A DNA stretch of 37,977 nucleotides from Myxococcales bacterium (GTDB taxonomy: Bacteria > Myxococcota_A > Polyangia > Haliangiales > J016): contig JABAAV010000002.1 of NCBI GenBank assembly GCA_014238595.1, forward strand, positions 18,417 to 56,393, read 5' to 3'. The translations under genes and the position numbers were made by a program. Below the pieces are notes generated by a model. That model did not search any database. It was not told the origin of the DNA and was given only the letters and a program-made list of their open reading frames with translations. The first letter of the stretch is position 1. Each line of letters begins with the position of its first letter. Below are positions 1,969 through 37,977 of this stretch, piece by piece.

Positions 1969-2103
1969 AGTCAAAATCCTTTGAAAATAACAGTAAAAAT
2001 ATATAGCGGAATCACGTGATCGATACAAGCGATTGTCATGAATTGAATCCATATTTTACATGATTTCAAGAATGATTTTTAAGCGATTTGGTGAATGTAT
2101 TGA

Positions 2104-2832
2104 ATGATTGACTTTGTTGTTCAATCAAATTTGATGGTATATTCTCTGACTATGAGTGGATGCACTGAATGTTCTAATAAGACAGGATGTACGGATCGTA
2201 AAGGTCCGATGTTAGATCAGGTGTATCAATCACTAGAAAGAATTTATCCTTCGCGTATTTGGGGAGAGCCGAATGATGAAGCACGATTCGGCTCTGGAAT
2301 TTGTATGCATGAAGGGCAAGATTTGGCGCAAGAGATTGAAACAACACTCAAAGCATCTACTGTTTATTGTAGTGGTTCTGACGAAGATTACTGCGATTAT
2401 ATTTATATATTGTGCATGGGTCGCGATCCTTCGTTAATGAAGATTCAGGAAAAACAGCTATCAATGCCAGATGATCTCGAGACACCTCTTCATGAAATGT
2501 ACTTACGCATTTGTTTGAGCAATATGGCAAGACTTGTTGGTGTTCAGCAAGTCTCTGTGTTTCTAGAGCAAGAAGATAGTCGTTATTTTATACGCGAAGT
2601 TCCTCGTGCCGGTGTTTACGATGCACCGCTATTGCCTAGGTTTCAGCAATTGGTTGGAGTATTTCAAAATTATGACATGATGCATGTTGATTTTGGTGAA
2701 ATTTCAGAGCCTCCTGATGGGTTTGATCACAGCCATTATGAAAGTCTTTATGCGAACAAACCAGATGTTGCTAATTATTTGTTTTATCCACAACCAAGCA
2801 CCATGGAAAGTATCTCTGAACTGAGAAGATAG
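2104..2832 (+). CDS. hypothetical protein with N-terminal Cys cluster
   Basis: 242-aa ORF divergent from the aconitase gene. Possible starts at 2104, 2134 and 2152 (MSGCTECSNKTGC...). No family recognised. Confidence 0.55.
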   Translation: MIDFVVQSNLMVYSLTMSGCTECSNKTGCTDRKGPMLDQVYQSLERIYPSRIWGEPNDEARFGSGICMHEGQDLAQEIETTLKASTVYCSGSDEDYCDYIYILCMGRDPSLMKIQEKQLSMPDDLETPLHEMYLRICLSNMARLVGVQQVSVFLEQEDSRYFIREVPRAGVYDAPLLPRFQQLVGVFQNYDMMHVDFGEISEPPDGFDHSHYESLYANKPDVANYLFYPQPSTMESISELRR

Positions 2833-2851
2833 TACTTATTGTTTCATCAAG

Positions 2852-4402: not shown

Positions 4403-4464
4403 GGTGGATATTCTAAATGATTTTATTGTAAAATAGCAGGTCGCTTTGGGATGGATTACAGATT

Positions 4465-5079
4465 ATGTATATAAAAATGTTGATTATTAGCGGAATAGGA
4501 CTTCTTTTATCCGTTGTTGTACTTGTATTTCTGGTATTTTCATCCAATGAGCCTATTAACACTAAGGTGATCAAAGCTGCGGAGAAAAGATTTGAAGAGA
4601 CTCAAAAAGCCAATGAGCAGCCTGCTAAGCCAAAGCGTATTAGGCCTAATCGCATTAGATCAAAGGTGAAACGAGATGTCGTTTTGAACGGTAAAACGAA
4701 ACAGGAAGACACTGTAGTGCCGCGTAAGAATCCATATACAGTGTTTGCTTCGAAAGTGGGAAGCATTGACAGGCATACGTTACGTTCCATGAACAGTGAT
4801 TCCAAAAGAACGCCATTGATGTCCGATGAGCTTCGTGAACAAATCCGAAATATTCGAAAGCATTACAGCCAAGGCGATTATGCATATGTTGCCGATCATG
4901 CTGAAGCAATATTCAATGAACGTCCCAACGATGCAGGAACGTTGAGAATGAGTGTGTTTGCACATTGCTCTTTAGGTAACGCAAAACAAGCACAAGACTA
5001 TTATGATCGAATTGATCAAGGTGGACATAAAAAAGCCTTGAAAAATCGTTGTTCTAAACTTGGTATTTCACTCGATTAA
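4465..5079 (+). CDS. membrane-anchored hypothetical protein (N-terminal TM, basic linker, TPR-like C-terminus)
   Basis: 204-aa ORF. Hydrophobic N-terminus MLIISGIGLLLSVVVLVFLVF, then a Lys/Arg-rich linker and a helical C-terminal region. Confidence 0.6.
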   Translation: MYIKMLIISGIGLLLSVVVLVFLVFSSNEPINTKVIKAAEKRFEETQKANEQPAKPKRIRPNRIRSKVKRDVVLNGKTKQEDTVVPRKNPYTVFASKVGSIDRHTLRSMNSDSKRTPLMSDELREQIRNIRKHYSQGDYAYVADHAEAIFNERPNDAGTLRMSVFAHCSLGNAKQAQDYYDRIDQGGHKKALKNRCSKLGISLD

Positions 5080-5096
5080 CTGCAGACCGTTTAATA

Positions 5097-5444
5097 TTAG
5101 GTGTGCGATCTCCGTTTGGGTTTGAGATGTTTGACGATGAAGTTTGTGATCATGATGATGACTAATGCTGTACCAATGGGTATAAGAAACAATGTCAAAG
5201 AAAATGAGCCTGACACATAACCAGCGTACATATAAAAAACCATACCAATCCCTAGGAATAGAGACATTAGGGCAAGCAGATATCCGATAAGAAGTATGTA
5301 TTTACGCTTTTTGAGAAGCTGCAATGATTCAAAAAAAAGAAGTTTTTGTTCAGGAGATAGTGTTTTTAATTCCTGTTCAAAATCTTTTGTAAGTTTGTTG
5401 GATTGTTTGTTTGTAAAGGAATCAGACATGGGCAAAGATGTCAT
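5097..5444 (-). CDS. small membrane protein (two predicted TM helices)
   Basis: 115-aa ORF with hydrophobic stretches ILLIGYLLALMSLFLGIGMVFYMY and LTLFLIPIGTALVIIMITNFIV. Head-to-head with polA. Confidence 0.55.
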   Translation of the reverse strand: MTSLPMSDSFTNKQSNKLTKDFEQELKTLSPEQKLLFFESLQLLKKRKYILLIGYLLALMSLFLGIGMVFYMYAGYVSGSFSLTLFLIPIGTALVIIMITNFIVKHLKPKRRSHT

Positions 5445-5452
5445 AGTCTAAA

Positions 5453-8098
5453 ATGTCTCGTCTTCACATCATAGATGGCCATGCATATATTTTTCGTGGA
5501 TATTATGCAGCTCACAGCAATTTATCGACCAATGCAGGAATGCCCACAGGTGCATTATATCTTTACACCAAGATGCTTTGGCAGATTTATAAAGACGAAA
5601 ACCCTGAATATGTCGTTGTTGTTTTCGATGGACCAGGAAAAACATTTCGTCATGAATTAGATCCTGATTACAAAGCCAATCGTGGAGAAATGCCAGATGA
5701 TCTTAAAAAACAGATGCCATATTTTGCGCCGGTCACAGAAGGGTTTGGCTGGCATGTTCTGACGGCTGACAATGTTGAAGCCGATGATATCATTGCCACG
5801 TTATGTCGAAGGAGTTGTGCTGCGGGGTTTGATGTATCGATTTATTCCAGTGACAAAGATTTGATGCAGCTCGTTGATGATAAGGTGCAACTCATCGATT
5901 CAAAGAGCAAAACTGTTTACTTACCTGAAACTGTAGAGAAAAAATTTGGCGTGTTTCCTTGTCAATTGCATGATTGGTTAACGTTAGTTGGTGATTCTTC
6001 AGATAACATTCCAGGATTGGCAGGAGTTGGTGCGAAAACGGCAACCAAACTCTTAAAAGAATATCGAGACATTGATGATATCATTGCTAATTCGGATATT
6101 GCTCAAACAAAATTTGTTAACAAAGCAAACAATGAAGCAAAAAAAAATGAGGTGAATTCTTCTGATTTGGAAGTTTATGTTCAAACTCATGTTGAAGAAC
6201 AAAAGAAACGACTCCTTCTTTCTTACAAGCTTGTATCTTTGCTTGATGACCTCAGTTTAACATCATCAAAAGAACAATGGATTTGTGACAAGCTAGACAA
6301 TGCATCCTTGGTAGAATTATTTGAAACGCTCGAATTTGGAAAGCTGTCCAATGAGATTTTAGGTCAATCAACTCAACCCGATATTGTAACATCACAATCT
6401 TTCTGTGTTGTTGTTGGTCATATGACATTAGCGAATGAATGGATTGCTGCCATTCAAACAGATAAAAAGTTTTCATTTTATATAGACGCCGAAAAAAACA
6501 ACCATGTTTTTGATATCAAAGGAATCGCTGTTTATAGTTTGTCTAAAGGATCTGCTTATTTTTCTTCTGAATCGATGAATATTGTTTCAGTATTTGAAAC
6601 TGTATTTTGTGACGAAACCATCGTTAAGACTTGTTACGATATCAAACATGCATATGCTGCTTTATTATCGCAAGGCATTGTTATTAAGGGATTGTTTTGT
6701 GATGTCATGTTAGCAGCATATTTAATCGATTCAACACGAAAAGATTATTCATTACAAAAACTATATTTTTTAGCTTGCACCTCCGACAAATCCACTCAAC
6801 CTACGACAATGTTGAGTTATGTCCAGGCCATTTATCAAATGGGTGAACAAACAACTGATGTCATTAAAAAACGTGACATCTATCAAATGGCTTGTGATGT
6901 CGAATATCCTTTAGCAGAACTATTAAGCAGGATAGAACACAAAGGTATTGCGTTGGATCGTTTTGTGTTGAAACAGTTATCCGAAGAATTAGAAGGACGA
7001 TTAAGTCACGCAATAGATTTTGTGAATACGCTCAATGAGAGCCCTATTAATCTAGATTCTTCTAAGCAGATAGGGGTGTTTCTATTTGAAAAACTTGGAT
7101 TGATTAGTCCGGTGATGAAAAAACGGAAGACGGGATATTCTACTGATTTTTCTGTGCTTGATGCCATGCGAGATCAACATGAAATTGTGGATGTTATTTT
7201 AGAGTATAGAACGTTAAATAAACTCAAAAACACATATCTTGATGTGTTACCGAAGCTGATTGATCCTAAAACGCAACGAATCCATACGTCATTCCATCAA
7301 ACTTCAACGGCAACAGGACGATTATCTTCATCGCATCCTAATTTGCAAAATATTCCTATTCGCAGTGAATTAGGAAAAAAAATTCGCAGTGCTTTCATTG
7401 CTCCTCAAGGACGAACATTGATTTCTTGTGATTATTCCCAAATCGAATTACGTTTGTTGGCACATTTTTCTAAAGATGAAACGCTTTGTGATGCATTTCA
7501 TCATAATGAGGATGTTCATGATCAAACAGCATGTCAGATTTTCGATGTCAAATCACCCGAGGCATATCAAAGACATGTTGCTAAAGCGGTCAATTATGGA
7601 TTGGTTTATGGTCAAACAGATTTTGGATTGAGTCGTGTCCTTGGTGTGAATCGCCAAGAAGCCGACCACTATATAACAACTTATTTTAATCGATTTCCCA
7701 AAGTAGCCCCTTATCTTGACAATCTCGTCTGTTTTGCCAAAGAGATGGGTTATGCAAAAACGATTCTAAATCGACGTCGTTATATTCCTGATTTATCAGC
7801 AAACAACTATATCAGAAGAAATGCAGCAGAACGGATTGCCAAAAACACACCACTGCAAGGTAGTGCTGCTGATATCATGAAAATTGCGATGGTTATTGTT
7901 GCTAAACGATTGCAAGAAGAACATCTCGATGCAGCTATTGTATTAACAGTACATGATGAATTAGTGCTGGAATGTGCAACGGATGTAGCAGATGAGACTC
8001 TGACTGTTGTCAAAGACTCCATGGAGCACGCGATCGTTCTCGATGTCCCACTTTCAGTGCATAGTGGTAAAGCTCAAAACTGGGTCGATGCCCATTAA
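5453..8098 (+). CDS. polA: DNA polymerase I
   Basis: 881 aa. 5'-nuclease N-terminus (HIIDGHAYIFRGYYA, GDSSDNIPGLAGVGAKTATKLL). Family A polymerase motifs DYSQIELRLLAH, RHVAKAVNYGLVYG, LTVHDELVLE. Confidence 0.97.
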   Translation: MSRLHIIDGHAYIFRGYYAAHSNLSTNAGMPTGALYLYTKMLWQIYKDENPEYVVVVFDGPGKTFRHELDPDYKANRGEMPDDLKKQMPYFAPVTEGFGWHVLTADNVEADDIIATLCRRSCAAGFDVSIYSSDKDLMQLVDDKVQLIDSKSKTVYLPETVEKKFGVFPCQLHDWLTLVGDSSDNIPGLAGVGAKTATKLLKEYRDIDDIIANSDIAQTKFVNKANNEAKKNEVNSSDLEVYVQTHVEEQKKRLLLSYKLVSLLDDLSLTSSKEQWICDKLDNASLVELFETLEFGKLSNEILGQSTQPDIVTSQSFCVVVGHMTLANEWIAAIQTDKKFSFYIDAEKNNHVFDIKGIAVYSLSKGSAYFSSESMNIVSVFETVFCDETIVKTCYDIKHAYAALLSQGIVIKGLFCDVMLAAYLIDSTRKDYSLQKLYFLACTSDKSTQPTTMLSYVQAIYQMGEQTTDVIKKRDIYQMACDVEYPLAELLSRIEHKGIALDRFVLKQLSEELEGRLSHAIDFVNTLNESPINLDSSKQIGVFLFEKLGLISPVMKKRKTGYSTDFSVLDAMRDQHEIVDVILEYRTLNKLKNTYLDVLPKLIDPKTQRIHTSFHQTSTATGRLSSSHPNLQNIPIRSELGKKIRSAFIAPQGRTLISCDYSQIELRLLAHFSKDETLCDAFHHNEDVHDQTACQIFDVKSPEAYQRHVAKAVNYGLVYGQTDFGLSRVLGVNRQEADHYITTYFNRFPKVAPYLDNLVCFAKEMGYAKTILNRRRYIPDLSANNYIRRNAAERIAKNTPLQGSAADIMKIAMVIVAKRLQEEHLDAAIVLTVHDELVLECATDVADETLTVVKDSMEHAIVLDVPLSVHSGKAQNWVDAH

Positions 8099-22449: not shown

Positions 22450-23337
22450 ATGTCAGATAATAAACAACCTTTGTTAAAAGAAAATACGCATCGTATTGAT
22501 ATTCGAGCGATGGCTGAAGAAGCCAAAAACCGTCTTGCCCATTCCGATCGAGCGATGGCGACTCCAGCTGCTGCGGTCTCTGAATTTCAGTCCTCACACG
22601 CTCATTCAAAATGGCTTTGGCCCGTTGTTGTGTTCTCAGGAATTGTTATGGGTATTATGGGGGCATCTGTATTGATCAATGATTCAGAGCGCAATGATGT
22701 GCCTCCCTCAAACACTATAATAGTCAGTGCGGGTACAACTGATGCAGATAGAACGCATCAAGGTACAACACCGTTGACTCAACCCAGTATCAGGAATGCT
22801 AGACCAACGCCATCCCCTAGGGTTGCCATACCATTGACTCCAAAGTCACAGAAAGAATCTGTCAACAAACAAAAACGCCCTCGTAACAAACGAGCCGTGT
22901 CATCGAAAAATTCAAAATCTTCAAAGAAGAAAAACAGTGACATATTAATTCCAACATCAGAAAAATCAAAATCAACGAGTGCCTTGGATCGCCTTCTTGA
23001 AGAGCATTCCGATATATCAGGTGATGTTCCTGCCAAGAAAGTCAAGAAGAAGGTCAAACGTGGCAAACCCTTGTCTAGAACTCAAATCAAAAAAGTGATG
23101 CGTCGGATTGCGCCTAAAGTAAAACGTTGTGCCAAGATACATCGCAAAGAAGGACGGATTTTACTCAATATTTATGTGGCTTCTTCAGGAAAAACCAAAA
23201 AAGTCGATATTCTTAGCAAGCGATATAAGAAAACTAAGGTTGGACGATGTGTTGCTAAGATCGTTAAGCGAACGAAATTCCCTTCATTTACTAAAAAACA
23301 AATGAAAATTCGTTATCCTTTTTTGTTGGAATATTAA
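22450..23337 (+). CDS. TonB-like protein with AgmX/PglI-type C-terminal domain
   Basis: Cytoplasmic N-terminus, one TM (WLWPVVVFSGIVMGIMGASVLI), a Pro/Lys-rich linker and a C-terminal domain (RCAKIHRKEGRILLNIYVASSGKTKKVDIL...GRCVAKIVKRTKFPSF). Confidence 0.7.
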   Translation: MSDNKQPLLKENTHRIDIRAMAEEAKNRLAHSDRAMATPAAAVSEFQSSHAHSKWLWPVVVFSGIVMGIMGASVLINDSERNDVPPSNTIIVSAGTTDADRTHQGTTPLTQPSIRNARPTPSPRVAIPLTPKSQKESVNKQKRPRNKRAVSSKNSKSSKKKNSDILIPTSEKSKSTSALDRLLEEHSDISGDVPAKKVKKKVKRGKPLSRTQIKKVMRRIAPKVKRCAKIHRKEGRILLNIYVASSGKTKKVDILSKRYKKTKVGRCVAKIVKRTKFPSFTKKQMKIRYPFLLEY

Positions 23338-24167
23338 CGCTCTGAGCTTTGTTTCTTGAAGTTCGCAATTTGTTGAATGAGTTTTCTTCGATTTTGTTCA
23401 GAGCGCCATGCTAAGAGTCCCACAAGCAAAATTGACGCAAACGCGGCAATGAGTATCCATTGAAGCAATGTCTTTGATTGTGAGGCAACAACGATAGGTC
23501 CTACGGTCGTCCATGGTGTGTCTTGTGGATTATGTTGAATATCAACAGATGGCACAGCAATAATTTCTACCATGACATGTTCCGGTGTTAATTTTTCCAC
23601 AGATGCAGCAACCAGATTGGCAATCATTGCTTTGTTAATGGGGCTGTTTGTGTCATTTGATTGGGGTGAAATACGTAAAACAATCGAGGCTTGTGGTGGA
23701 GAGGATTGTTTATCTAATAGTGTTTTTTGAGCCAGTGTGACCAAAACATTCGCATCAATAACGCCGTCAATATGCTCAAGATGAGTTGCTATTTCGTGGT
23801 TAAGGGCATCTAAAAAACGTGCTTTTTCTTCTGTGCTTGTTGGGATCATTGAGGAGTTTTTGTAGAGGGCATTAAATCCTTTTTTAGGCTCTTTGGGCAG
23901 GTTTTGTTCTCGAAGAATGGCCATTGCTCTTGCGGCATGCTCTGTGGAGACATAGATCGTTGTGGAAGGTTTGTCTTTATTCTCTATGGTTTTGGCTGTC
24001 GCAATGATATTTGCTTTACCTAAGGCAGCCATGACGTCACGTGCTTGTGAATCATCCAGATTTCTAATGAGTTCTTTTGAGCATGCGACAACCAATAGCA
24101 AGCTAGCGCAGAGCAGTATCTGTAAAAACCGAATTATTATAGAATTTTGGATGAACATTGCCTTCAT
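23334..24167 (-). CDS. sctJ: T3SS inner-membrane ring lipoprotein, SctJ (YscJ/EscJ/HrcJ) family
   Basis: Lipobox LLVVACS. Collinear with remembered YscJ: ACSKELIRNLDDSQARDVMAALG, ARAMAILREQNLPKE, EEKARFLDALNHEIATHLEHIDGVIDANVLV, VPSVD, and a C-terminal TM. Starts at 24194, 24167 or 24158 are possible. Confidence 0.8.
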   Translation of the reverse strand: MKAMFIQNSIIIRFLQILLCASLLLVVACSKELIRNLDDSQARDVMAALGKANIIATAKTIENKDKPSTTIYVSTEHAARAMAILREQNLPKEPKKGFNALYKNSSMIPTSTEEKARFLDALNHEIATHLEHIDGVIDANVLVTLAQKTLLDKQSSPPQASIVLRISPQSNDTNSPINKAMIANLVAASVEKLTPEHVMVEIIAVPSVDIQHNPQDTPWTTVGPIVVASQSKTLLQWILIAAFASILLVGLLAWRSEQNRRKLIQQIANFKKQSSER

Positions 24168-24225
24168 AATCAATTGATAGATGGTGTATAACACTTATGT
24201 TTCATTAACATTGCAAGGAGCTCTA

Positions 24226-24576
24226 ATGAAAAATCAAGTATTTTATTCTGTTTTAATGACTATATTTTTTGTAACCGTTGGCTTGGGAACATATGTTCCT
24301 GTTGAAGCCGTTGCAGCCCCTCCTAAAAACCTGCAAGTGTTTCCAAAAAATACGACTAAAAAAGTTCTTAAAAAGAAAATGAAAAAAATGGCTGCTGCAT
24401 TGGATGTTCAATGTGACTACTGCCACAACACACGTAAAATGGAAGAAGACACGAAGCACAAAAAAGTTGCACGAGACATGCTACGTATGACCGCAGCTAT
24501 TAATAAGGCCAATTTCAAAGGCAAGGATCGTGTGACATGTCTGACCTGTCATAACGGTCAGAAAGAACCTAAATAG
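24226..24576 (+). CDS. dihaem c-type cytochrome, photosynthetic-reaction-centre cytochrome c subunit-like family
   Basis: AAGGAG lies 6 nt upstream of the ATG at 24226. Signal peptide, then two CxxCH motifs (CDYCHN, CLTCHNG) spaced as in the PRC-cytochrome fold. Confidence 0.8.
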   Translation: MKNQVFYSVLMTIFFVTVGLGTYVPVEAVAAPPKNLQVFPKNTTKKVLKKKMKKMAAALDVQCDYCHNTRKMEEDTKHKKVARDMLRMTAAINKANFKGKDRVTCLTCHNGQKEPK

Positions 24577-24604: not shown

Positions 24605-24928
24605 TTAAACTTGCATTGACATGATTTGACGCAGTGCGTTGATGGTGTGTTGTGTTGCGTTGGCGATGGTGTTGATGCTCAGACTGTAGTTTTGTGTTTG
24701 AATTTGTAGGGCTAATAAATCGCTCGTATTGAGCGATTTGCCTGTACTGAGTTGAGCTAATTGATGGTGTATATTTTTGCCATGCTCAACGACATCGGTA
24801 AGATAATCCGTGGTAGTTGTGATCGCAGAAGATTGATTAAGTAATGAGGGAAAATCTGTTCGCGAAGAATGATTGGAAGATTGAATAGAACGAGAGGGTT
24901 GGATGGCGTTTTTTGTTGAGATATGCAT
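24605..24928 (-). CDS. sctI: possible T3SS inner rod protein, SctI (YscI/PscI/PrgJ)-like
   Basis: About 107-116 aa. The C-terminus QLSTGKSLNTSDLLALQIQTQNYSLSINTIANATQHTINALRQIMSMQV aligns by eye with the remembered PscI/YscI tail (ELSTPGDDPNSLMQMQWSLMRITMQEELIAKTVGRMSQNVETL). Size and proximity to sctJ fit. Confidence 0.5.
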   Translation of the reverse strand: MHISTKNAIQPSRSIQSSNHSSRTDFPSLLNQSSAITTTTDYLTDVVEHGKNIHHQLAQLSTGKSLNTSDLLALQIQTQNYSLSINTIANATQHTINALRQIMSMQV

Positions 24929-24956
24929 AAAAAGGATATCGTAATGTGACAGCATA

Positions 24957-27835: not shown

Positions 27836-27858
27836 AAGATGGATTGTGTTACGGTTTT

Positions 27859-29265
27859 ATGGTGAATGTTGAGAAACAAAAATTACTTCGTTATCTTCCT
27901 AAGATTGATGATCTGTTATCCCTAGAGATTGTCAAACAAAAAAAGGCACCTCATAAGATTGTTGTAGAAGCGATTAGAAATGTTATTGAATCTTATCGCA
28001 ATGCTATTTTATGCGGAGATATGACCGATGTTATTGTTGATGCTCATGACATCGTCAATGAGATTGATAAAATCTTACAACCATCGTTACGTAAAACAAT
28101 TAATGCTACAGGTGTGATTCTGCATACAAATCTAGGTAGAGCTCCATTGCCACTCCAATCGATCGAATCTGTATCCGAGATTTCTTTAGGTTATGGAAAT
28201 CTTGAATATGATCTTGAAAAAGGTCAACGTGGATCGCGTCACGATCATATTGCTTCGTTGTTATGCGCCATCACAGATGCTGAAGATGCTGTTGTGGTTA
28301 ACAACAATGCCGCAGCTGTATTGCTTGGATTGGCCGCATTAGGTCGTCAAAAAGATGTTATTATTTCACGTGGAGAATTAATTGAAATAGGTGGATCATT
28401 TCGTATTCCTGAAGTGATGGCTATTTCGCGTGCGAATCTTGTTGAGGTTGGTACAACGAACAAAACACATCTTAAAGATTATAGTGCTGCGCTATCTACA
28501 GACACATCGTTGTTGTTGAAAGTACATCGATCAAATTTCTCTATTGAAGGATTTACATCAGATGTCGATGTCTCTGATTTAGTTGAATTGAGCAAAGGTC
28601 ATGCCATTGATGTGATGGTTGATCTGGGTTCAGGCATGCTCCTTTCACAAGAGGCGTTAAAAAAAGCAAAGCTGCCTATTGAACTGGATGTATCAAGTTG
28701 CATTAATTCAGGGGCTTCGCTTGTTACGTTTTCGGGTGACAAATTATTAGGAGGACCACAAGCAGGTATCTTAGTAGGAACAAAAGCTTGTATTGAGCAG
28801 GTACGTTCACATCCTTTAATGCGTGCACTTCGTCCAGATAAAATGACATTGGCAGCATTGTATGCTGTGTTATCGTTGTATCATCAAGGCAAAGAGCGAG
28901 AGATCCCTACAGTGTCCATGTTGCTGATAGACAAAGATTCATTGCATGTAAAAGCACAAAAGTTATATCAACACATTATAAACAACGGACATGTCCCAGA
29001 GTTTGTCTCGATCGATATCATAGAATGTATATCTAAGGTCGGTGGTGGTGCAATGCCTCAAGCATCCATGTCATCATGGGGGATAGCAATACGTTTTGCA
29101 AAAACTTCTGCGATTAACATTTCTTCTTTAGAAAAAAACATGCGTACTTCACAGACCTCTGTGATTGCGCGTATTGCAGATGATGCATTGATTTTAGATG
29201 TTCGTACCATTTTTGAAGATGAATTTGATTGTGTCTGTGACGCACTTGCCAATGCATGGAGTTAA
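27859..29265 (+). CDS. selA: L-seryl-tRNA(Sec) selenium transferase
   Basis: NATGVILHTNLGRAPL, NNNAAAVLL, SRGELIEIGGSFRIPEVM, VHRSNFSIEGF and FSGDKLLGGPQAG (PLP lysine context). The track start at 27844 is a TTG. Confidence 0.9.
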   Translation: MVNVEKQKLLRYLPKIDDLLSLEIVKQKKAPHKIVVEAIRNVIESYRNAILCGDMTDVIVDAHDIVNEIDKILQPSLRKTINATGVILHTNLGRAPLPLQSIESVSEISLGYGNLEYDLEKGQRGSRHDHIASLLCAITDAEDAVVVNNNAAAVLLGLAALGRQKDVIISRGELIEIGGSFRIPEVMAISRANLVEVGTTNKTHLKDYSAALSTDTSLLLKVHRSNFSIEGFTSDVDVSDLVELSKGHAIDVMVDLGSGMLLSQEALKKAKLPIELDVSSCINSGASLVTFSGDKLLGGPQAGILVGTKACIEQVRSHPLMRALRPDKMTLAALYAVLSLYHQGKEREIPTVSMLLIDKDSLHVKAQKLYQHIINNGHVPEFVSIDIIECISKVGGGAMPQASMSSWGIAIRFAKTSAINISSLEKNMRTSQTSVIARIADDALILDVRTIFEDEFDCVCDALANAWS

Positions 29266-30238: not shown

Positions 30239-30978
30239 TAAAAATTGTTAAATCTTCAATAATTTCCGATGAATTATTTATACATGGATTCCCTGAACGG
30301 ACAGGAGGGGTTTCTACAGGTCTTTGTTCGTCGTTAAACTTTGGATCTCGATGTGATGATCGTGTAGAAAATGTCATCGAAAATCATAATCGTTTGAGCC
30401 GTGACATAGATGTATTGAATGATGAGATGGTCATCGCTGCTCATGCCCATGGCACTGTTGTTTGGAACACTGACGTTACAGAGAACAAACCTCAAGAACA
30501 TGATGGATTGGTGACAGGACAGCGCGGCAAACTTTTATGTGTCTATGGCGCAGACTGTATCCCCATTGTATTGTGCGATTCAAAATCTAAACAATGTGGT
30601 GCTGCTCATTCAGGATGGCGTGGTACAGCTGCTGGAATTGCCAAAAACATGGTGTCAATGATGGTGTCATTAGGGAGTCGACCTGAAAACATCTGTGTTG
30701 CTTTGGGTCCTTCGATTGCCGCTTGTTGTTTTGAAGTGCAAGACGATGTATTCAATGTTTTTGAAAAAATATCATCTCAAAGCGTACAGAAACGAGATGG
30801 CAAATGTTTTGTTGATTTACATGCAACAACACGAATCATGCTTGAGCAAGCCGGTGTCAAGCCATACAACATCGATGACAATCCTCCCTGTACCTGTTGC
30901 CATCCAGAGCGTTTTTTCTCTTACCGTAGAGATGGTAAAAAAACAGGCTCACACATTGGGTTTATCGGGTTACGGTAG
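30235..30978 (+). CDS. pgeF: YfiH/PgeF (DUF152, laccase-domain) protein
   Basis: ATGA start/stop overlap with rluD. GADCIPIVL, AAHSGWRGTAAGI, CCFEV and SYRRDG. Confidence 0.88.
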   Translation: MIKIVKSSIISDELFIHGFPERTGGVSTGLCSSLNFGSRCDDRVENVIENHNRLSRDIDVLNDEMVIAAHAHGTVVWNTDVTENKPQEHDGLVTGQRGKLLCVYGADCIPIVLCDSKSKQCGAAHSGWRGTAAGIAKNMVSMMVSLGSRPENICVALGPSIAACCFEVQDDVFNVFEKISSQSVQKRDGKCFVDLHATTRIMLEQAGVKPYNIDDNPPCTCCHPERFFSYRRDGKKTGSHIGFIGLR

Positions 30979-32530
30979 GAAGAATATCGATATTATAAGT
31001 TAAGAGCAAATCACCCGTTAATGCCAGCAATGTTGCTGTGGCTTGTAGTGAATCAATAACGGCACGAGAACGACTCAATTTTGCTTTTTCAAGTTCTTCT
31101 TGTCTGCGTAACACATCAAAATTAGTGGCACTTCCATTTTGAAAACGATTTAACTCAATGTCAGCATTTTGCTGTGCTAATTTGATGGATGTTGTTGCGA
31201 TATCAAAACGTTTTTCAGCGGAGCGAATCGTATCAGCAGTACGGATGACTGAAACTGAAACTTCCCGTTTTGTTTCTTCAAATGACAGTGTTCTACGATG
31301 TGCTCGTAACGCTGCATTTTTATGGACACCTTCTGCGTAATTGTTTTCAATTGATCGGGAATACGTTAACGACAATGTTCCTTGGTAATCTTTAAACGTT
31401 CCCATGCGTTCTATTGCTGTTTTAAAATTTTCTGAGAATCCCAATGGCGTAACACTGGCTCTCAAATCTAATTGAGGGAGTGTTGCATCTTTGCTCACAG
31501 CCATATCAATTTCTGTTTCATTAAGATGATTCTTGGATAACGCAAGATTAGGGTTTTTGTTATGAGCACGATGGAGCAATACGTTAGTGTCCTTAGGTGC
31601 TTGTACAACCATTGATGGAAGCGATGTCATGAGTGTGATGTTGTTGTATCCGATTTCCATCCCTGCTAAACGCCGTAATTCTAATGATCGATCATTGATT
31701 TTAATTTGTGCACTTAGCAATGATTCTTTTTTGACAGCCAATGTATATTCTACAGCCAGTCGCTCACTAGGGGCTACAACCCCTGCTGCAATCGCGTCAT
31801 TAGTGATTTTTAATTGAAGCAGAGCAAGGTCAAACGAAGCCTTTTGAATCGCTTTTTCTTGAATGGCGTAAGCCAATTCCCAATAAGTTAAAATAATACG
31901 ACGGATATACTCAGTGTTTGTTGCTGTTTGTTGTAGCAAAGCTGTGTTTTTATCAATCAATGCTTTTTGTTGTTCAGAGCGTGCCACTGTTTTGCCTGCA
32001 CCACGCAACAAAGGTTGTGTGAACGATAATGAAAAGGATGTATTGTATGTTGTGCTTTCAAAGGGGGCATCGAGAAAATCATCAAACGATGTGTCGGATT
32101 GATCATCTGAGAGAGAGACTTTGGATTTTCGTTGTTCGGTAGATCCTGAAATATCAAGCGCAAGGGTTCCCCCAGAAGATATGCTCCGAGCGATTTGGCT
32201 TGAAAGATTCAGTGTATTGTTCTCAACAAGCTGTACAGGTTGTCCTTGCACAAGATCTTTGCGAAAGACTGAAGCATTTGTTGCAATACTTAATCGCCAG
32301 TCATCAAGACCGGCAGCTTGAAGTTCATTGGCATGCGCTGATGAAACATCGAGTGCTGCTTTGGAAATTTGTGAATTTTGTCTAACAGCAACATCAAGAA
32401 TCTCTTTGATCGATGTCGTTGATGGTGTTGACGGTGTTGCAAATCCTGTTGATGCGATCATCAAGAATCCAACACAGATGGTCATGACCCATAACACTCT
32501 GGAGGCAGTATTGTTTGTGTAAAATATCAT
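30962..32530 (-). CDS. tolC: TolC-family outer membrane efflux protein
   Basis: 522 aa. Signal peptide and duplicated OEP helical repeats. Its 3' end overlaps the pgeF 3' end by 17 nt. Confidence 0.85.
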   Translation of the reverse strand: MIFYTNNTASRVLWVMTICVGFLMIASTGFATPSTPSTTSIKEILDVAVRQNSQISKAALDVSSAHANELQAAGLDDWRLSIATNASVFRKDLVQGQPVQLVENNTLNLSSQIARSISSGGTLALDISGSTEQRKSKVSLSDDQSDTSFDDFLDAPFESTTYNTSFSLSFTQPLLRGAGKTVARSEQQKALIDKNTALLQQTATNTEYIRRIILTYWELAYAIQEKAIQKASFDLALLQLKITNDAIAAGVVAPSERLAVEYTLAVKKESLLSAQIKINDRSLELRRLAGMEIGYNNITLMTSLPSMVVQAPKDTNVLLHRAHNKNPNLALSKNHLNETEIDMAVSKDATLPQLDLRASVTPLGFSENFKTAIERMGTFKDYQGTLSLTYSRSIENNYAEGVHKNAALRAHRRTLSFEETKREVSVSVIRTADTIRSAEKRFDIATTSIKLAQQNADIELNRFQNGSATNFDVLRRQEELEKAKLSRSRAVIDSLQATATLLALTGDLLLTYNIDILPTVTR

Positions 32531-32664
32531 CAGTCGTGAAAAATGTGATTGGGTGGCAACCCTGTTAAAATACCCGCAGGAGTCTATCTTGTGTGTACGA
32601 TCTCGTCAAAGGGGGATCGTGTTGTCTAGATCTTTATTATGTGATGTGTTACGAACTATCCCTC

Positions 32665-33288
32665 ATGGATGTCAAGCTTAGAACCTATACATTTCTCGAT
32701 GCCCTTCAACCGCAATTAGCAACATTTATGGGCAAAACAGTCCGTGGTTTTTTGCCCATTCCTGGTCAAGCCTCTCTATTTGTTGAAATTGCACCAGGTA
32801 TTGCGATCAATCAAGTGACCGATCGTGCACTTAAGGCGACCAAAGTACAACCTGCACTTCAAATTGTGGAGCGTGCCTATGGTCTTTTGGAAGTCCATCA
32901 TGATGATCAAGGGGAAGTGTTATCTGCTGGAGAGCAGATTTTGCAATTTATTGACAAAAAAGATGTTGATCGCTTGGCGCCACGTGTTGTGACCAGTCAA
33001 ATTATTCATGGCATCAGTGCCTATCAAACACAGATTATTAATCGAACATCGTCAGGTATGATGGTATTGCCTCAAGAAAGTTTGCTTTTCATTGAAACTG
33101 AGCCAGCAGGATATGTGGTTTTGGCAGCCAATGAAGCTGAAAAAGCGGCTCCTATTTCATTAATTCAGGTTACGCCGTATGGAGCTTTTGGTCGGCTTTA
33201 TTTGTCGGGGTCAGAAGCCGCCGTTGATGCAGCCGCTAAAGCAGCAATCGCTGCATTAGAGAGCGTCTCTGGACAATCAGTAAAATAA
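32665..33288 (+). CDS. BMC-T shell protein, CsoS1D/CcmP-like permuted tandem-domain (double-stacking) type
   Basis: [59 protein letters not shown]...[18 protein letters not shown]...[10 protein letters not shown]...[13 protein letters not shown] is collinear with remembered CsoS1D and Haliangium BMC-T2. An alternative GTG start at 32593, 10 nt after AGGAG, would add 24 aa. Confidence 0.88.
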
Positions 33289-33364
33289 TATGTTGATCAA
33301 GCGTTGATTAGGATCGAATTAAGTCGTAATTTACACCTTAATATTAGAAATGGAGAATTGAACG

Positions 33365-33652
33365 ATGGCTGATGCTTTAGGAATGATTGAAACAAAAGGC
33401 TTTGTGAGTATGGTCGAAGCGGCCGATGCGATGGTTAAAGCCGCAAAAGTTGAGCTTGTTGGTTATGAAAAAACAGGCGGTGGTTTTGTGACGGCAGTAG
33501 TTCGTGGTGATGTTGCAGCGGTTCGTGCTGCTACTGAAGCAGGTCAACGTTCTGCAGAGCGTCTTGGTGAGGTGGTATCAGTACATATTATTCCACGCCC
33601 TCACATTAATGTAGATATCGCTCTTCCTTTGGGACGACAATCTACTCAATAA
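33365..33652 (+). CDS. BMC-H hexameric shell protein (PF00936 type)
   Basis: [60 protein letters not shown]... is very close to the Haliangium ochraceum BMC-H as I remember it. GGAG lies upstream. Confidence 0.95.
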
Positions 33653-33662
33653 TTTTAGGCTT

Positions 33663-33956
33663 ATGCTACTTGGAAAAGTAAGCGGTACTGTAGTTTCGAC
33701 ACGCAAAGAACATTTGTTGGATGGGTTAACATTGTTACTCATTGAGCATTGTCTCCCCAATGGTAAAGGGCAAGGTACATTTCTTGTTGCAACCGATTCG
33801 GTGAGTGCAGGTATTGGTGAAATCGTTCTTTATACGACGGGAAGTTCTGCGCGACAAACCGAATTAACGACAGGCAAGCCCATTGATGCCACTGTGATGG
33901 CAATTGTAGATTCCATTGATATGGGTGGCAGTACAGAATATCTTAAAGATAGTTGA
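33663..33956 (+). CDS. BMC-P pentameric vertex protein (EutN/CcmL family)
   Basis: MLLGKVSGTVVSTRKEHLLDGLTLLLIE...VATDSVSAGIGEIVLYTTGSSAR...IDATVMAIVDSI. Confidence 0.92.
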   Translation: MLLGKVSGTVVSTRKEHLLDGLTLLLIEHCLPNGKGQGTFLVATDSVSAGIGEIVLYTTGSSARQTELTTGKPIDATVMAIVDSIDMGGSTEYLKDS

Positions 33957-33963
33957 GTTGGTC

Positions 33964-35436
33964 ATGAGCCTTCACATGAATGAACAAAACATTGAAGAGC
34001 TTGTCTCTCGTGTGATGGAGCGATTGTCTGATCAATCGTTGTCCTCACTATCATCTAAAAATCTCACTCAATCATCATCGCCACCACAGGCTATGCCACG
34101 AGATGCGGTTGATATTCCTCGTGGAACATTGGGTGTTTTTGAAACACCCGATCAAGCGGTTGCCGCAGCACTGGATGGCTTTGAAAAAAACGAAGCGGCA
34201 CCATTGGTATTGCGCGAAAAAATGATTCAAGCGATGCGTGATGTCACACGAACACATCTTGAAGATTTGGCACGTTACGCTCATATCGAATCTGGTCTTG
34301 GTCGTATTGAAGACAAAATCGAAAAGAATCGATTAGTCCTTGAAAAAACACCGGGGACGGAGATTTTACAACCTATTGCCTATACCGGTGATGACGGATT
34401 AACGCTCATTGAGCGTGCACCCTATGGTGTGTTTTTGGCAGTGACGCCCTGTACAAATCCAACTGAAACGATTCTTTGCAATAGTATCGGTATGATTGCC
34501 GGTGGTAATTCGGTCATTTTTAATACGCACCCGTCTGCCGCTAAAACATGCAATTGGTATATTAGTTTGCTCAATGAAGCGATTGCATCGGTGGGTGGGC
34601 CTCATCATGTGATTGTATCCATAGCTTCACCTACGATTGAAACAGCACAAGCGTTAATGAAACATAAAGATGTACGTCTTGTCGTGGTTACAGGAGGGCC
34701 TGGCGTGGTTCGTCAAGCCATGCAATCAGGTAAAAAAGTCATTGCCGCGGGACCGGGCAATCCACCTGCTTTGGTCGATGCTACCGCTGATATTGCCCAT
34801 GCAGCCAAATCGATTGTGCAAGGTGCCTCTATTGATAACAACATTATATGTACGGCCGAAAAAGAGATTGTCGCTCAATCATCTATTGCCAATGCATTGA
34901 AAGAACAATTAGGAAAACATCAAGCACTGATTTTGTCATCCAAACAAACGCGTGATTTAGAGCGATTGCTTTTAAATGATGATGGCTCTGTCAATCGATC
35001 ATGGGTTGGGAAAAACGCATCTGATATTGCCGCTAATATTGGCATTACAGGTCATGATTTGAAACTTCGTTTATTGGTTTGTGCGGTTGAAGAAGCCCAT
35101 CCCTTTGTTCAACATGAACTTTTGATGCCTGTGATTGGGATGTTTGAAGTTTCAGACATCACCGAAGGCATTGCTGCGTCACTGCGTTGTGAACATCAAT
35201 TTTATCATACGGCTGTCATGCATTCGACAAACGTCGATCACATGTCTGCAATGGCACGGCTGTGTAATTGTTCTATCTTTGTTAAAAATGCACCCAACTT
35301 AGCGGGACTTGGTTATGGTGGAGAAGGGTATACATCCTTTACGATTGCAAGTCCTACGGGTGAAGGGTTAACCACGGCACTTGATTTTACAAGACAACGT
35401 CGATGTAGTCTCAAAGATTCATTCCGATTTGTGTAA
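33964..35436 (+). CDS. CoA-acylating aldehyde dehydrogenase (PduP/EutE-like) with N-terminal encapsulation-peptide-like helix
   Basis: Catalytic Cys context NNIICTAEKE, plus VVTGGPGVV and AAGPGNPP. The N-terminal amphipathic NEQNIEELVSRVMERL is followed by a Ser/Pro-rich linker. The track TTG start at 33916 would overlap BMC-P, so the ATG at 33964 is preferred. Confidence 0.9.
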   Translation: MSLHMNEQNIEELVSRVMERLSDQSLSSLSSKNLTQSSSPPQAMPRDAVDIPRGTLGVFETPDQAVAAALDGFEKNEAAPLVLREKMIQAMRDVTRTHLEDLARYAHIESGLGRIEDKIEKNRLVLEKTPGTEILQPIAYTGDDGLTLIERAPYGVFLAVTPCTNPTETILCNSIGMIAGGNSVIFNTHPSAAKTCNWYISLLNEAIASVGGPHHVIVSIASPTIETAQALMKHKDVRLVVVTGGPGVVRQAMQSGKKVIAAGPGNPPALVDATADIAHAAKSIVQGASIDNNIICTAEKEIVAQSSIANALKEQLGKHQALILSSKQTRDLERLLLNDDGSVNRSWVGKNASDIAANIGITGHDLKLRLLVCAVEEAHPFVQHELLMPVIGMFEVSDITEGIAASLRCEHQFYHTAVMHSTNVDHMSAMARLCNCSIFVKNAPNLAGLGYGGEGYTSFTIASPTGEGLTTALDFTRQRRCSLKDSFRFV

Positions 35437-35439
35437 AGT

Positions 35440-36003
35440 ATGAAAAATATGAAATCTTCATTAGGCGTCATTGAATTATCTTCAATAGCACGCGGTGTTG
35501 TTGTGAGTGATGCGTTACTCAAAAAGGCACATGTATCTTTGATTCGTTCTATGGCGGTATCTTGTGGCAAACACATCATCATGTTTGTTGGTGATATTGC
35601 TGAAGTCGAAGAATCATTTCATAGCGGTGTTCATCATGGCGGATCAGATGTTATCGACAGTGTCATGATTCCGATGGTGGACAAGCAAATTGCAGCGTTT
35701 CTTCCTGATGGTAAATCTATATCACGTCGCAACACTGAAGCATTGCTGGTGATAGAAACAAAAACAGTGTGCAGTACATTGTTGGGCGTTGATGCTGCAG
35801 TCAAAGCTTCTGATGTCGTGGTTATCGAAATGCAGTTTGCTGTCGGTATTGGTGGTAAGGCATTTTCAATGATGACAGGTACGCTGCATGACCTTGAAGC
35901 ATCCGTCGATGCTTTTGAGCACACCGTCACATCAGATCATATTGTGAATACAGAAATTATTGCATCCCCTCATGAAGAGATGCCATCACGATTTTTGATT
36001 TAA
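35440..36003 (+). CDS. BMC-T shell protein, PduT-like tandem-domain (single-layer) type
   Basis: SSLGVIELSSIARGVVVSDALLKKAHVSLIRSMAVSCGKHIIMFVGDIAEV is one BMC domain. A second follows (ALLVIETKTVCSTLLGVDAAVKASDVVVIEMQFAVGIGGKAFSMMTG). Collinear with remembered PduT. Confidence 0.88.
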   Translation: MKNMKSSLGVIELSSIARGVVVSDALLKKAHVSLIRSMAVSCGKHIIMFVGDIAEVEESFHSGVHHGGSDVIDSVMIPMVDKQIAAFLPDGKSISRRNTEALLVIETKTVCSTLLGVDAAVKASDVVVIEMQFAVGIGGKAFSMMTGTLHDLEASVDAFEHTVTSDHIVNTEIIASPHEEMPSRFLI

Positions 36004-36247
36004 AACAACGCGATCAGTGATCAGTAATATCAGTGACAGGCAATCAATGATTGATGAAGTATCGTCAATGTTTTGATGGTCACATCAGATCATATTGTGA
36101 ACACAGAAATTATTGCATCCCCTCATGAAGAGATGCCATCACGATTTTTGATTTAAAACAACGCGATCAGCGATCTAGTGATCAGTAATATCAGTGACAG
36201 GCAATCAATTATTGACGAAGTATCGTCAATGTTTTGATGGTCACATC
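35926..36247. repeat. two-copy tandem duplication (153 nt + 161 nt) bounded by 8-nt microhomology GTCACATC
   Basis: GTCACATC occurs at 35926, 36079 and 36240. Copy 1 holds the real 3' end of the BMC-T gene and a dead copy of the cyclophilin 3' end. Copy 2 holds a dead copy of the BMC-T tail and the real cyclophilin 3' end, plus an 8-nt insertion (cgatctag). Confidence 0.95.
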
Positions 36248-36895
36248 CGTGTGAGGTTTTTGTCTTGTGTTTGTTTGAACACGTGCGATGGCTTTAATGA
36301 TATCGGTGTTGTTGCACATGCCAAATACTGTATGACGACCATTAAGATGTGGCGTTGCTTTTTCTGTAATAAAAAACTGACTGCCATTGGTTGATGGACC
36401 TGCATTGGCCATAGACAAAATACCTGCCTTGTTATGTTTTAAATCAGGATGGATTTCATCAGCAAACGTATAACCAGGACCTCCTGTGCCGACACCGAGT
36501 GGATCTCCACCTTGAATCATGAAATTAGGAATGACACGATGAAAAATAAGCCCATTGTAGAACGGTCGTTTTTCGACTTGTTTTGTTGTTGGATTGATAA
36601 AAGGTTTCATGCCTCGAGCCAGTCCAACAAAATTGGCTACAGTCATCGGAGTTTCTTTTTCGGTCAACAGACATTCGATCATGCCCATTGAAGTATCAAA
36701 CTTCGCTGTTAATTGCCCTGTTCCTGAAAGATCATTAATATACATCTCTAAATCTTGCGGTTGAGGTGGTTTCACATCGCTCATCATGGGCGCTTTGGGT
36801 GTTGCTGCGGGCGTTGGTTCTTTGTTGTCAGATCCACATGCCGATAACACAAGAGTGAGAATGATAAGACTTGATAGTTTTGAATAGATACGCAT
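36209..36895 (-). CDS. cyclophilin-type peptidyl-prolyl isomerase, lipoprotein
   Basis: Signal peptide with lipobox ([20 protein letters not shown]). Cyclophilin core [15 protein letters not shown] and [17 protein letters not shown]. The track start at 36919 is a TTG lying in a repeated sequence. Confidence 0.9.
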
Positions 36896-37375
36896 AGGGA
36901 GCATGTCTAGCATAAACAAAAATCAAAATCCATCATCTGTTGATGGTTAAATTGATGATTAAACCATGATATCGATTAAAAACACGATGTCGACCAGTGT
37001 CTTATTTGTGCACGAAGTATCTTTGATTGAACGAGAGATGGGAATGACATCGATGTGAGGGTGTTGATGTCATTGAGATTAAAATCACATTTCCTATAGG
37101 GAACATGGCTGGCATAAAAATCAAAATCCATCGTTTATAATTAAAAGCATGGTGTCGATCCATGGCATGTTTTTTCATGAGGTATCCTCGATTGAACAAG
37201 GGATGGGAATGACATGGATGTGAGGGTGTTGATGTCATTGAGATCAAAATCACATTTCCGATAGGGAACATGGCTAGCATAAAAAATCAAAATCCAGCAT
37301 CTATAATTAAAAGCATGATGTCGACCAGTGTCATGTTGTTGCATAAGGTACCCTCGATTGAACGAGGGATGTGTT
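36894..37375. repeat. three tandem ~165-200-nt units between the LRR gene and the cyclophilin gene
   Basis: Units at 36894-37095 (202 nt, with an insertion of about 37 nt), 37096-37260 (165 nt) and 37261-~37375 (truncated). Each begins atagggaRcatgKctRgcataaa..aatcaaaatcca and contains gggaatgacatSgatgtgagggtgttgatgtcattgag. Confidence 0.9.
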
Positions 37376-37384
37376 GTGAATGAC

Positions 37385-37448
37385 AATCAGCTTATTGGAC
37401 ACTCAAGTTATTCGACAATCAGTTTATTGGACAATCAGGTTATTCAAT
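37385..37448. repeat. four tandem 16-nt repeats
   Basis: aatcagcttattggac / actcaagttattcgac / aatcagtttattggac / aatcaggttattcaat. The array lies 15 nt from the LRR gene stop codon. Confidence 0.85.
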
Positions 37449-37463
37449 ATCGCATCATGTTTG

Positions 37464-37977
37464 TTAGCAATCTTTGTTATTAAGAATGGCTATGGCAGTA
37501 GGAGGTTCAGTGAGATTGTCAATAATATCATCCACAATGGATTGACATAGATCTTGATTTTCTGAGATTATAAGCAATCCGTTCATTTCTGTGAGTATCG
37601 GTAGAGACAGATTGTTCAAACTTGGCATTGATTCGATTTTTAAATACTCTCCAATGGAAGTGAGCGCTGGAAGTGATAGCGATGTGATGAGGTCGTGGTA
37701 TGAGATCCACAGGTAACCTCCGACAGAGGTGAGCGCTGATAGTGATATCGATTCGAGGTCGTCTAGATCATAGATGCTCAGGTTATCCCCGGCAGAAGTG
37801 AGCGCTGGAAATGACATCGATGTGAGTCTTGGGAGTGAGTGGAATCTCAGGCCACCTCCGACAGATGTGAGCGCTGGAAGTGACATCGATGTGATCTTGA
37901 GTAGGTCTGTGATCCTCAGGCCACCTCCGACAGATGTGAGCACTGGAAGTGGTGGCAGTGATCTGAGTTTGTATAAG
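37464..37977 (-). CDS. leucine-rich repeat protein (23-aa / 69-nt units), 5' end beyond the right window edge
   Basis: The frame stays open upstream of the track GTG start (37943) to the window end (...LRSLPPLPVLTSVGG...). Units follow the pattern LTSMSLPALTSVGGGLRFHSLPR. The C-terminal cap is non-repeat (CQSIVDDIIDNLTEPPTAIAILNNKDC). Confidence 0.85.
   Translation of the reverse strand, partial: LYKLRSLPPLPVLTSVGGGLRITDLLKITSMSLPALTSVGGGLRFHSLPRLTSMSFPALTSAGDNLSIYDLDDLESISLSALTSVGGYLWISYHDLITSLSLPALTSIGEYLKIESMPSLNNLSLPILTEMNGLLIISENQDLCQSIVDDIIDNLTEPPTAIAILNNKDC

Follow-up and report, generated by a model that had tools for sequence, protein, structure and literature searches.

A five-gene bacterial microcompartment operon, very probably a type I HO main locus, in an apparently divergent and AT-rich Haliangiales-like lineage

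Gene content and layout of the operon

The stretch of DNA analyzed here, hereafter the window, comprises 37,977 nucleotides of contig JABAAV010000002.1 (assembly GCA_014238595.1, Myxococcales bacterium) and carries a bacterial microcompartment (BMC) operon at positions 32665-36003. The operon consists of five open reading frames (ORFs), all on the plus strand, that code in this order for a tandem-domain shell protein of the permuted type (BMC-Tdp), a BMC-H, a BMC-P, an aldehyde dehydrogenase (AldDH), and a second tandem-domain shell protein (BMC-Ts). The gaps between them are 76, 10, 19, and 3 nt, which agrees with the five co-directional and tightly spaced genes of an earlier, preliminary description of this DNA. 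As argued below, the operon is very probably the main locus of a BMC of the type named after Haliangium ochraceum (HO), of the variety known as type I.

The BMC-Tdp gene (32665-33288) gave a Pfam BMC match with an E value of 8.5e-8, in which a single permuted domain was detected, and it is followed by the genes for BMC-H (33365-33652; Pfam BMC, E=3.9e-30) and BMC-P (33663-33956; Pfam EutN_CcmL, E=2e-25). The CoA-acylating AldDH is encoded at 33976-35436, with an alternative ATG at 33964 (Pfam Aldedh, E=6.7e-30), and BMC-Ts at 35440-36003, with two Pfam BMC domains (E=2.3e-26). All five proteins thus match the BMC, EutN_CcmL, or Aldedh families, and together with the PDB matches given below these results bear out the assignments made in the preliminary description. 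The BMC-Tdp gene starts at ATG 32665, and the alignment with HO-5816 begins at residue 1; a GTG at 32593 was dropped in favor of this ATG. For the AldDH, the start is most likely ATG 33976, which would give a product of 486 amino acids, in agreement with the lengths of homologs and with the gene calls of ENA. The upstream TTG 33916 was dropped, as the 486-amino-acid product fits the homologs.

Shell proteins

The HO loci used for comparison throughout come from genomes, from contigs carrying AldDH matches, and from JGI metagenomes (the best 80 of 398 confirmed relatives). The operon codes for one of each of the tile types required by a closed icosahedral shell (H, P, Tdp, and Ts), and in a PDB sequence search the best solved-structure match of each of the four shell proteins was the corresponding shell protein of H. 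ochraceum. Membership of the shell proteins in the HO clade was judged by this best match.

The closest structure to BMC-Tdp is HO-5816 (BMC-T2; E=3.2e-94, residues 1-204 to residues 1-204), followed by HO-T3, CcmP, and CsoS1D, so that the protein can be assigned as a CsoS1D/CcmP-like permuted tandem-domain stacking trimer with a predicted gated pore, orthologous to Hoch_5816. It retains the pair E69-R70 (in the motif VERAYG) found in HO-T2, HO-T3, and CcmP, which, from the CcmP/CsoS1D literature, we take to be the pore-gating residues. Its identity to 48 other HO Tdp proteins is 70 to 78%. BMC-H, which matches HO-5815 best (E=4e-48) and is 81 to 89% identical to 61 other HO BMC-H proteins, is by homology the hexamer that makes up the main tile of the facets, an ortholog of Hoch_5815. 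BMC-P has as its top match the BMC-P chain of the HO shell 5v74 (E=1.5e-31) and shares 48 to 59% identity with 70 other HO BMC-P proteins; it is predicted to be the pentamer that caps the vertices and the main-locus member of the BMC-P triplet expected for the class.

BMC-Ts is the most divergent shell component, with an identity of 35 to 44% to 66 other HO Ts proteins. Its top match is the HO BMC-T1 structure 5dih (E=4.9e-33), with PduT structures next, and it is accordingly assigned as a PduT-like tandem-domain trimer and putative ortholog of HO BMC-T1 (Hoch_5812). It also has a lineage-specific substitution, as the pore loop reads VSCGK with a cysteine at position 42 (codon at 35563-35565, plus strand). 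A cysteine in this loop is found in none of 86 other HO Ts proteins (VSGGK in 52, VSSGK in 10), and other assemblies of the organism show the same VSCGK loop. Cys42 sits one residue past the cysteine of the PduT motif CP(G/S)K and past the matching site of the engineered HO-T1 mutant 5dii. The possibility that BMC-Ts is a natural PduT-type Fe-S protein was not accepted, as this one-residue shift takes Cys42 out of the CP(G/S)K register. The BMC-T(SE)/PduT type is recognized by that motif, which ligates a 4Fe-4S cluster, together with an adjacent MNdh/PduS gene, and here we found VSCGK instead and no PduS-like gene among the ORFs of the window.

Aldehyde dehydrogenase

The AldDH finds its top PDB matches in the acylating AldDHs 4c3s and 5jfl (E of ~1e-120) and scores 620 bits against the NCBIfam model NF011927, the cutoff of which is 403. 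The motif NNIICTAEKE, cited in the preliminary description as the mark of an acylating enzyme, is present, and its catalytic Cys292 (codon TGT, 34849-34851, plus strand) is invariant in 17 aligned homologs. The protein has thousands of close homologs, the best 120 of which are 62 to 69% identical and include proteins of H. ochraceum and of Kofleriaceae metagenome-assembled genomes (MAGs). Identity is 65% to the H. ochraceum AldDH (P0069), 69% to the nearest metagenome proteins, and 59 to 72% to the AldDHs of 86 HO loci. In a neighbor-joining tree, the enzyme falls within the type I HO clade, with the AldDH of a type II-like locus (L004) as sister.

The N terminus of the AldDH carries an encapsulation peptide (EP) and a linker (33976-34110, plus strand), delimited from the alignment of the 17 homologs and from the hydrophobic moment. 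The EP is the amphipathic helix NEQNIEELVSRVMERL at residues ~3-18, with the hydrophobic moment maximal at residues 5-18, and it is conserved among the 17 homologs, whereas the Ser/Pro-rich linker (residues ~19-45) is variable. By its sequence, this combination of helix and linker is a standard encapsulation signal, and the AldDH, the sole enzyme of the locus, is presumed to be the cargo.

Membership in the HO type I class

The HO type comprises 41 cataloged loci and is named after H. ochraceum (Sutter 2021, PMC8217296). According to that catalog, the type I main locus is defined by shell genes and AldDh only, the AldDh always bears an N-terminal EP, and 24 of 30 type I genomes have a satellite locus that joins a class II aldolase (PF00596) with two BMC-P genes, in a class pattern that includes a BMC-P triplet and a second CcmP-like BMC-Tdp on a satellite (PMC8217296). 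Other cargo and modules proposed for HO BMCs are an EP-bearing DERA, EutBC/EutL modules, and PduS/T pairs (PMC8217296).

The window operon shows the features of type I: the content of the main locus, HO-like shell proteins, an AldDh of the right clade with its EP, and the gene order. As these agree with the published type I definition, the operon belongs to the cataloged HO type, and we assign it with high confidence to the HO type I main loci. Wherever the 86 comparison loci extend over these genes, they show the same order Tdp-H-P-AldDH-Ts, and none of these loci has an extra BMC-P, an aldolase, or another metabolosome enzyme in up to 7 to 10 kb of flank per side, as the contigs allow. A search of representative genomes with the AldDH returned 14 loci, four of them of the HO type and none identical to the window locus. 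In a clustering of the flanks of 87 loci, we found regulators and unannotated ORFs and no aldehyde-generating enzyme or phosphotransacylase (PTAC). One locus, L025 (GCA_050290105.1, 12730-21449), has directly 3' of its HO operon genes for a beta-elimination lyase, an amidohydrolase, a Zn-dependent alcohol dehydrogenase, an enoyl-CoA hydratase, two 2-hydroxyacyl-CoA dehydratase subunits, and two BcrAD-type activases; no other locus showed such a set of genes for acyl-CoA processing.

The preliminary description had stressed that no signature enzyme, phosphotransacylase, or alcohol dehydrogenase is encoded in these 38 kb, and a Pfam scan and tblastn searches agree. Among window ORFs of at least 100 amino acids, Pfam detected no PduL/Pta (PF06130, PF01515), Fe-dependent alcohol dehydrogenase (PF00465), class II aldolase, DERA, EutBC, diol dehydratase, or glycyl-radical enzyme, and tblastn on the window returned neither a further BMC-domain gene nor a class II aldolase. 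The preliminary description had also allowed that a satellite locus might place the operon in a class already characterized, and at the level of the class this is what the catalog reports (PMC8217296). Its reading of the locus as an organelle of unassigned chemistry holds in that the function of HO BMCs "remains enigmatic" (PMC8217296), and we found no later characterization of their native chemistry in the literature searched; it has to be amended in that the locus belongs to the cataloged HO type I, for which cargo candidates have already been proposed (PMC8217296). The locus adds one member to a cataloged BMC type, in an unusual host that is AT-rich and divergent.

Host lineage and conservation of the locus

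The GC content of the operon is 43.3% (39.7% for the window), compared with 57.8 to 73.5% in 86 other HO operons. The PolA protein encoded in the window reaches only 44% identity to its best non-self matches, of which those with a name come from Haliangium, Kofleriaceae, and Myxococcales; the flanking genes for RluD-like, YfiH-like, OEP, and cyclophilin proteins (see below) are syntenic with those of relatives. From this affinity of PolA and the shared synteny of the flanks, the host looks like a very divergent, AT-rich, Haliangiales-like lineage in which the locus would have been inherited vertically.

BMC-Tdp and BMC-H are 70 to 89% identical to their counterparts in GC-rich relatives, versus only 44% for PolA. 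Moreover, the five proteins of the locus are 99 to 100% identical across contigs from several independent samples; the metagenome contigs assigned to the same organism are ERZ23489137, ERZ23489589, ERZ26869290, SRR11455659, and SRR11455655 (ENA/Logan). A shell so much better conserved than PolA, and ORFs that are intact and nearly identical in several samples, argue for purifying selection and not for decay, and thus for an operon that probably makes a working organelle.

The 3' end of the operon is affected by a tandem duplication of ~153-161 bp (35926-36247; repeat families D4 and D5, copies 97 to 98% identical), which runs from the final 78 nt of the BMC-Ts gene across the intergenic region into the 3' end of the cyclophilin gene and leaves the BMC-Ts ORF intact. 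The duplicated segment is single-copy in contig L001 (ena:ERZ26869290:ctg345088), and two further scaffolds of the organism break off there. The duplication is either a strain polymorphism or an assembly artifact. Contig L001 is itself palindromic at 1590-7149 (cyclophilin-Ts-AldDH followed by AldDH-Ts-cyclophilin), with the AldDH call there truncated to 404 amino acids, which is most likely a fold-back assembly artifact.

Flanking genes and regulatory sequences

Upstream of the operon, and transcribed divergently from it, lies a gene for a TolC-family outer-membrane efflux protein (OEP; 30962-32530, minus strand; Pfam OEP, E=1.4e-25, with the NCBIfam TolC family model below its cutoff). Downstream and convergent is the gene for a cyclophilin-type peptidyl-prolyl isomerase (36209-36919, minus strand; Pfam Pro_isomerase, E=5.2e-42), the translation of which has an LSAC lipobox; as it carries a lipoprotein signal and would be exported, we do not count it as cargo. 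Both identities had been given in the preliminary description, and they stand. Its view that these flanks are unrelated to the BMC has become doubtful, since both genes recur beside HO operons. In the window and the loci L002, L021-L027, and L032-L106, taking a distance of <=500 bp as adjacency, a homologous OEP gene is divergently adjacent (at 53 to 399 bp) in 30 of the 37 HO loci with sufficient upstream sequence; in four more it lies at 3.4 to 5.4 kb, which brings the count within 5.4 kb to 34 of 37, and in three it is absent. The cyclophilin gene lies downstream in 26 of 51 HO loci (<=500 bp away in 10, farther in 16) and is absent in 25. No flanking family other than OEP is common to more than 14 loci in the clustering of 87 flanks. 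The text of the supplement to the BMC catalog is silent on the OEP neighbor (PMC8217296). The adjacency of OEP and BMC genes may reflect either function or inherited synteny.

The 134-bp region between the OEP and BMC-Tdp genes (32531-32664, read directly from the sequence) is presumed to house the promoters of both the OEP gene and the operon. In a consensus scan, promoter-like sites in this region were not above the level of shuffled sequences, and terminator-like matches near the operon merely reflect the duplicated segment. We found no riboswitch, other RNA family (Rfam), or tRNA near the operon. Genes for a HAMP-HisKA sensor kinase and for an NtrC-type or PDZ/GAF sigma-54 activator recur a few kb from HO operons in ~10 to 13 loci (e.g., L002, L021, L022, L027, L052, and L066), with none in the window. 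Prompted by these nearby NtrC-type regulators, we considered a sigma-54 promoter common to HO operons and rejected it: a loose match was present in 4 of 42 upstream regions, none of them in the window, and no conserved -24/-12 element was found across the 42 HO loci.

Putative function and alternative explanations

Taken together, the operon is best explained as the main locus of a type I HO metabolosome whose aldehyde-generating enzyme is encoded elsewhere in the genome, a reading to which we give a probability of about 0.85. From the class as described, two more BMC-P paralogs and a second CcmP-like BMC-Tdp would be expected elsewhere in the genome, and the signature enzyme would most likely be a class II aldolase of the fuculose-phosphate type (PF00596) on a satellite locus or, alternatively, an EP-tagged aldolase of the DeoC type. 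In such a compartment, the gated Tdp pore would admit a phosphorylated sugar, the cleavage of which would yield triose phosphate together with lactaldehyde, glycolaldehyde, or acetaldehyde as the short aldehyde; the encapsulated AldDH would trap this aldehyde as acyl-CoA in an NAD-dependent reaction. NAD+ and CoA may be recycled by passage through the large Tdp pore or by a satellite electron module of the PduS/PduT type, which is present in only three published HO genomes (PMC8217296).

The proposed full gene set can be seen directly in a related locus, L004 (from a Candidatus Eiseniibacteriota MAG), in which a single operon codes for RpiR/SIS regulator-Tdp-H-P-AldDH-P-P-class II aldolase-Tdp. 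That the aldehyde of the present organism comes from a sugar-phosphate aldolase is a proposal that we advance tentatively, giving it somewhat less than an even chance.

Several observations weigh against the reading of a metabolosome with a distant aldehyde source. A protein search seeded with the BMC-linked aldolase of L004 gave no match attributable to this organism. AT-biased aldolase matches were considered as its satellite and discarded, as they proved to be from Nitrospinota or unattributable. Three close homologs of the BMC-linked aldolase that we examined lie outside a BMC context, with no BMC-P nearby: these class II aldolases (L109, 907-6897; L110, 3710-7849; L111, 265-4404) are 67 to 71% identical to that of L004, and two of them directly follow an ExbB/ExbD/TonB/TolB-type cluster and one sits beside TRAP-transporter genes. 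The family is thus not BMC-specific, which somewhat weakens the aldolase inference. The aldolase satellite is missing from 6 of the 30 published type I genomes (PMC8217296), the link between an aldolase and the HO shell is a putative one, and the model does not account for cofactor recycling, which holds for the whole class.

Those six genomes (PMC8217296) also favor a stripped-down compartment in which the satellites have been lost from an AT-rich, fast-evolving, and possibly reduced genome and the shell, with the AldDH and no signature enzyme, detoxifies aldehydes that diffuse in from the cytosol. Such a compartment would account for an operon made solely of shell genes and AldDH with no other metabolosome enzyme within 38 kb, the outlying GC content (43% versus 58 to 73%) and the 44% identity of PolA are compatible with genome streamlining, and metabolosomes that process aldehydes without cofactor recycling have been suggested before (Axen 2014, PMC4207490). 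However, a single BMC-P and a single Tdp would break the conserved triplet and pair of the class, enclosing only the downstream enzyme brings no obvious kinetic gain, and the loss of the satellites is pure conjecture, so that we regard this explanation as improbable. A functional tie of the HO organelle to the cell envelope through the TolC-family channel, or a modified compartment, be it one reduced to AldDH after loss of its satellites or one in which Cys42 binds a metal or acts in redox chemistry so that electrons can leave and NAD+ is recycled, is likewise unlikely. The basis for the envelope tie is that the OEP gene is kept divergently adjacent in ~80 to 90% of HO type I loci, far above any other neighbor.

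An acetaldehyde source of another kind would be an ethanolamine or amino-alcohol module, in which a satellite EutBC with an EutL-type BMC-Tsp makes acetaldehyde within the HO shell for conversion to acetyl-CoA by the AldDH. Four published HO loci do have an EutL and EutBC satellite module, and the HO AldDh groups with the SPU5/SPU7 enzymes (PMC8217296), the SPU AldDhs being assigned to acetaldehyde (PMC11585597). As these are only 4 of 41 loci, in which the module is called an add-on (PMC8217296), and no eut genes were found among the window ORFs, we hold this source to be very improbable. The least probable explanation, with hardly any weight, is that the genome is degenerating and the operon, decaying or silent, is a relic that forms no organelle. 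The genome is AT-rich and divergent, the 3' part of the operon is affected by the tandem duplication, and no promoter excess is recognizable, all of which would suit a relic. Against this, none of the five ORFs is truncated and the catalytic and gating residues are preserved, the duplication has not damaged the BMC-Ts ORF, and both the conservation of the shell proteins, far above that of PolA, and the 99 to 100% identity of the five proteins in contigs of several independent samples are at odds with decay.

A type I HO metabolosome with its aldehyde-generating enzyme elsewhere in the genome is thus the reading we retain. Structural and engineering work on BMC shells has the HO shell as its main model, with the native substrate of that shell still unassigned, and one more type I locus leaves that unchanged. 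The lineage of the window is far removed from the GC-rich genomes of Haliangium and Kofleriaceae sampled to date, and if its genome is small, listing all EP-tagged proteins and satellite shell genes in it could narrow down the cargo candidates. By-products of this comparison that apply to the whole class are the TolC-family neighbor, the frequent cyclophilin, the recurrent genes for histidine kinases and sigma-54 activators, and the lack of a further metabolosome enzyme within 7 kb of the 86 loci. If true, the tie to the OEP or the reading as a modified compartment would give the first physiological handle on the functionally orphan HO shell.

Other genes in the window

The remaining window is mostly housekeeping, with genes for PolA, a MacB-type ABC system, YicC, Gmk, RelA/SpoT, Tmk, a sigma-70 factor, RsmI, SelA, RluD-like, and YfiH-like proteins, plus a few genes of type III secretion system (T3SS) or flagellar type and six ORFs without a Pfam match. 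A second aldehyde dehydrogenase gene (2852-4402, minus strand) codes for a PaaZ-type 3,4-dehydroadipyl-CoA semialdehyde dehydrogenase (NCBIfam NF008868, 626 bits). It was considered as a BMC enzyme and set aside as unrelated, being of the PaaZ type and without an EP. A YscJ/FliF-family gene (23334-24194, minus strand) and a small FliE/T3SS-needle-like gene (24605-24955, minus strand) bracket a multiheme cytochrome c gene (24181-24576, plus strand), and the two may be pieces of a flagellar or secretion apparatus. There is a gene for the selenocysteine synthase SelA (27844-29265, plus strand), and selenoproteins are thus probably produced.

Downstream of the cyclophilin gene, dense repeats occupy 36951-37951 (a 165-bp unit repeated 2.4 times and units of 16/32 bp), and an ORF similar to Recep_L_domain/LRR proteins (37464-37943, minus strand) contains repeat units of 69 bp. 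In contig L001 (8671-15833), the neighbors are of the same repeat type and include proteins of 1237 and >1193 amino acids. Recep_L_domain/LRR-like repeats are a eukaryote-like family that is frequent in host-associated bacteria.

Comparison with known systems

Canonical metabolosomes (PDU, EUT, and GRM) encode a signature enzyme, PduL/Pta, and an alcohol dehydrogenase with their shell genes, none of which is found among the window ORFs. A carboxysome is not indicated either, as the window has an AldDH instead of RuBisCO or carbonic anhydrase and the NCBIfam carboxysome models remain below their cutoffs (CcmP, 259.8 against 340; CcmL, 85.4 against 125). In the PVM pathway for fucose and rhamnose, a class II aldolase is the signature enzyme. 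PVM and PVM-like BMCs share the logic proposed here, in which a PF00596 aldolase supplies the aldehyde to an encapsulated acylating AldDH (PMC8217296); by their description they are set apart, as their loci carry the aldolase, PTAC, and other enzymes beside the shell genes and are without the Tdp/Ts set seen here. With PduT/BMC-T(SE) proteins (PMC11626177), the window BMC-Ts shares the tandem-BMC fold and a pore-loop cysteine, but it has SCGK and not CP(G/S)K, with the cysteine shifted by one residue, and no MNdh/PduS partner in the window.

The SPU5 and SPU7 types (PMC11585597) are those to which the HO AldDh is closest in the literature (PMC8217296), and they have in common with the HO class the N-terminal EP, the BMC-P triplets, and, in SPU5, a CsoS1D-like Tdp. 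In contrast to the window, SPU loci encode DERA (PF01791), usually RPI, and often PTAC or MNdh (PduS) (PMC11585597). In the HO type II/SPU5-like locus L004, homologs of four of the operon genes occur in the same order (identities of 65% for Tdp, 74% for BMC-H, 49% for BMC-P, and 54% for AldDH); L004 adds within its operon the RpiR/SIS regulator, two more BMC-P genes, the PF00596 aldolase, and a second Tdp, none of which is in the window. From H. ochraceum and the other HO type I loci, the window operon differs in its GC content of 43%, in a BMC-Ts only 35 to 44% identical, and in its unique pore-loop cysteine. The likeness to Hoch_5812-5816 noted in the preliminary description has been upheld by the best PDB matches of the shell proteins: the H. 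ochraceum locus has the same five genes in the same order, an AldDH that is 65% identical and bears the same EP, no other enzyme, and a related host.

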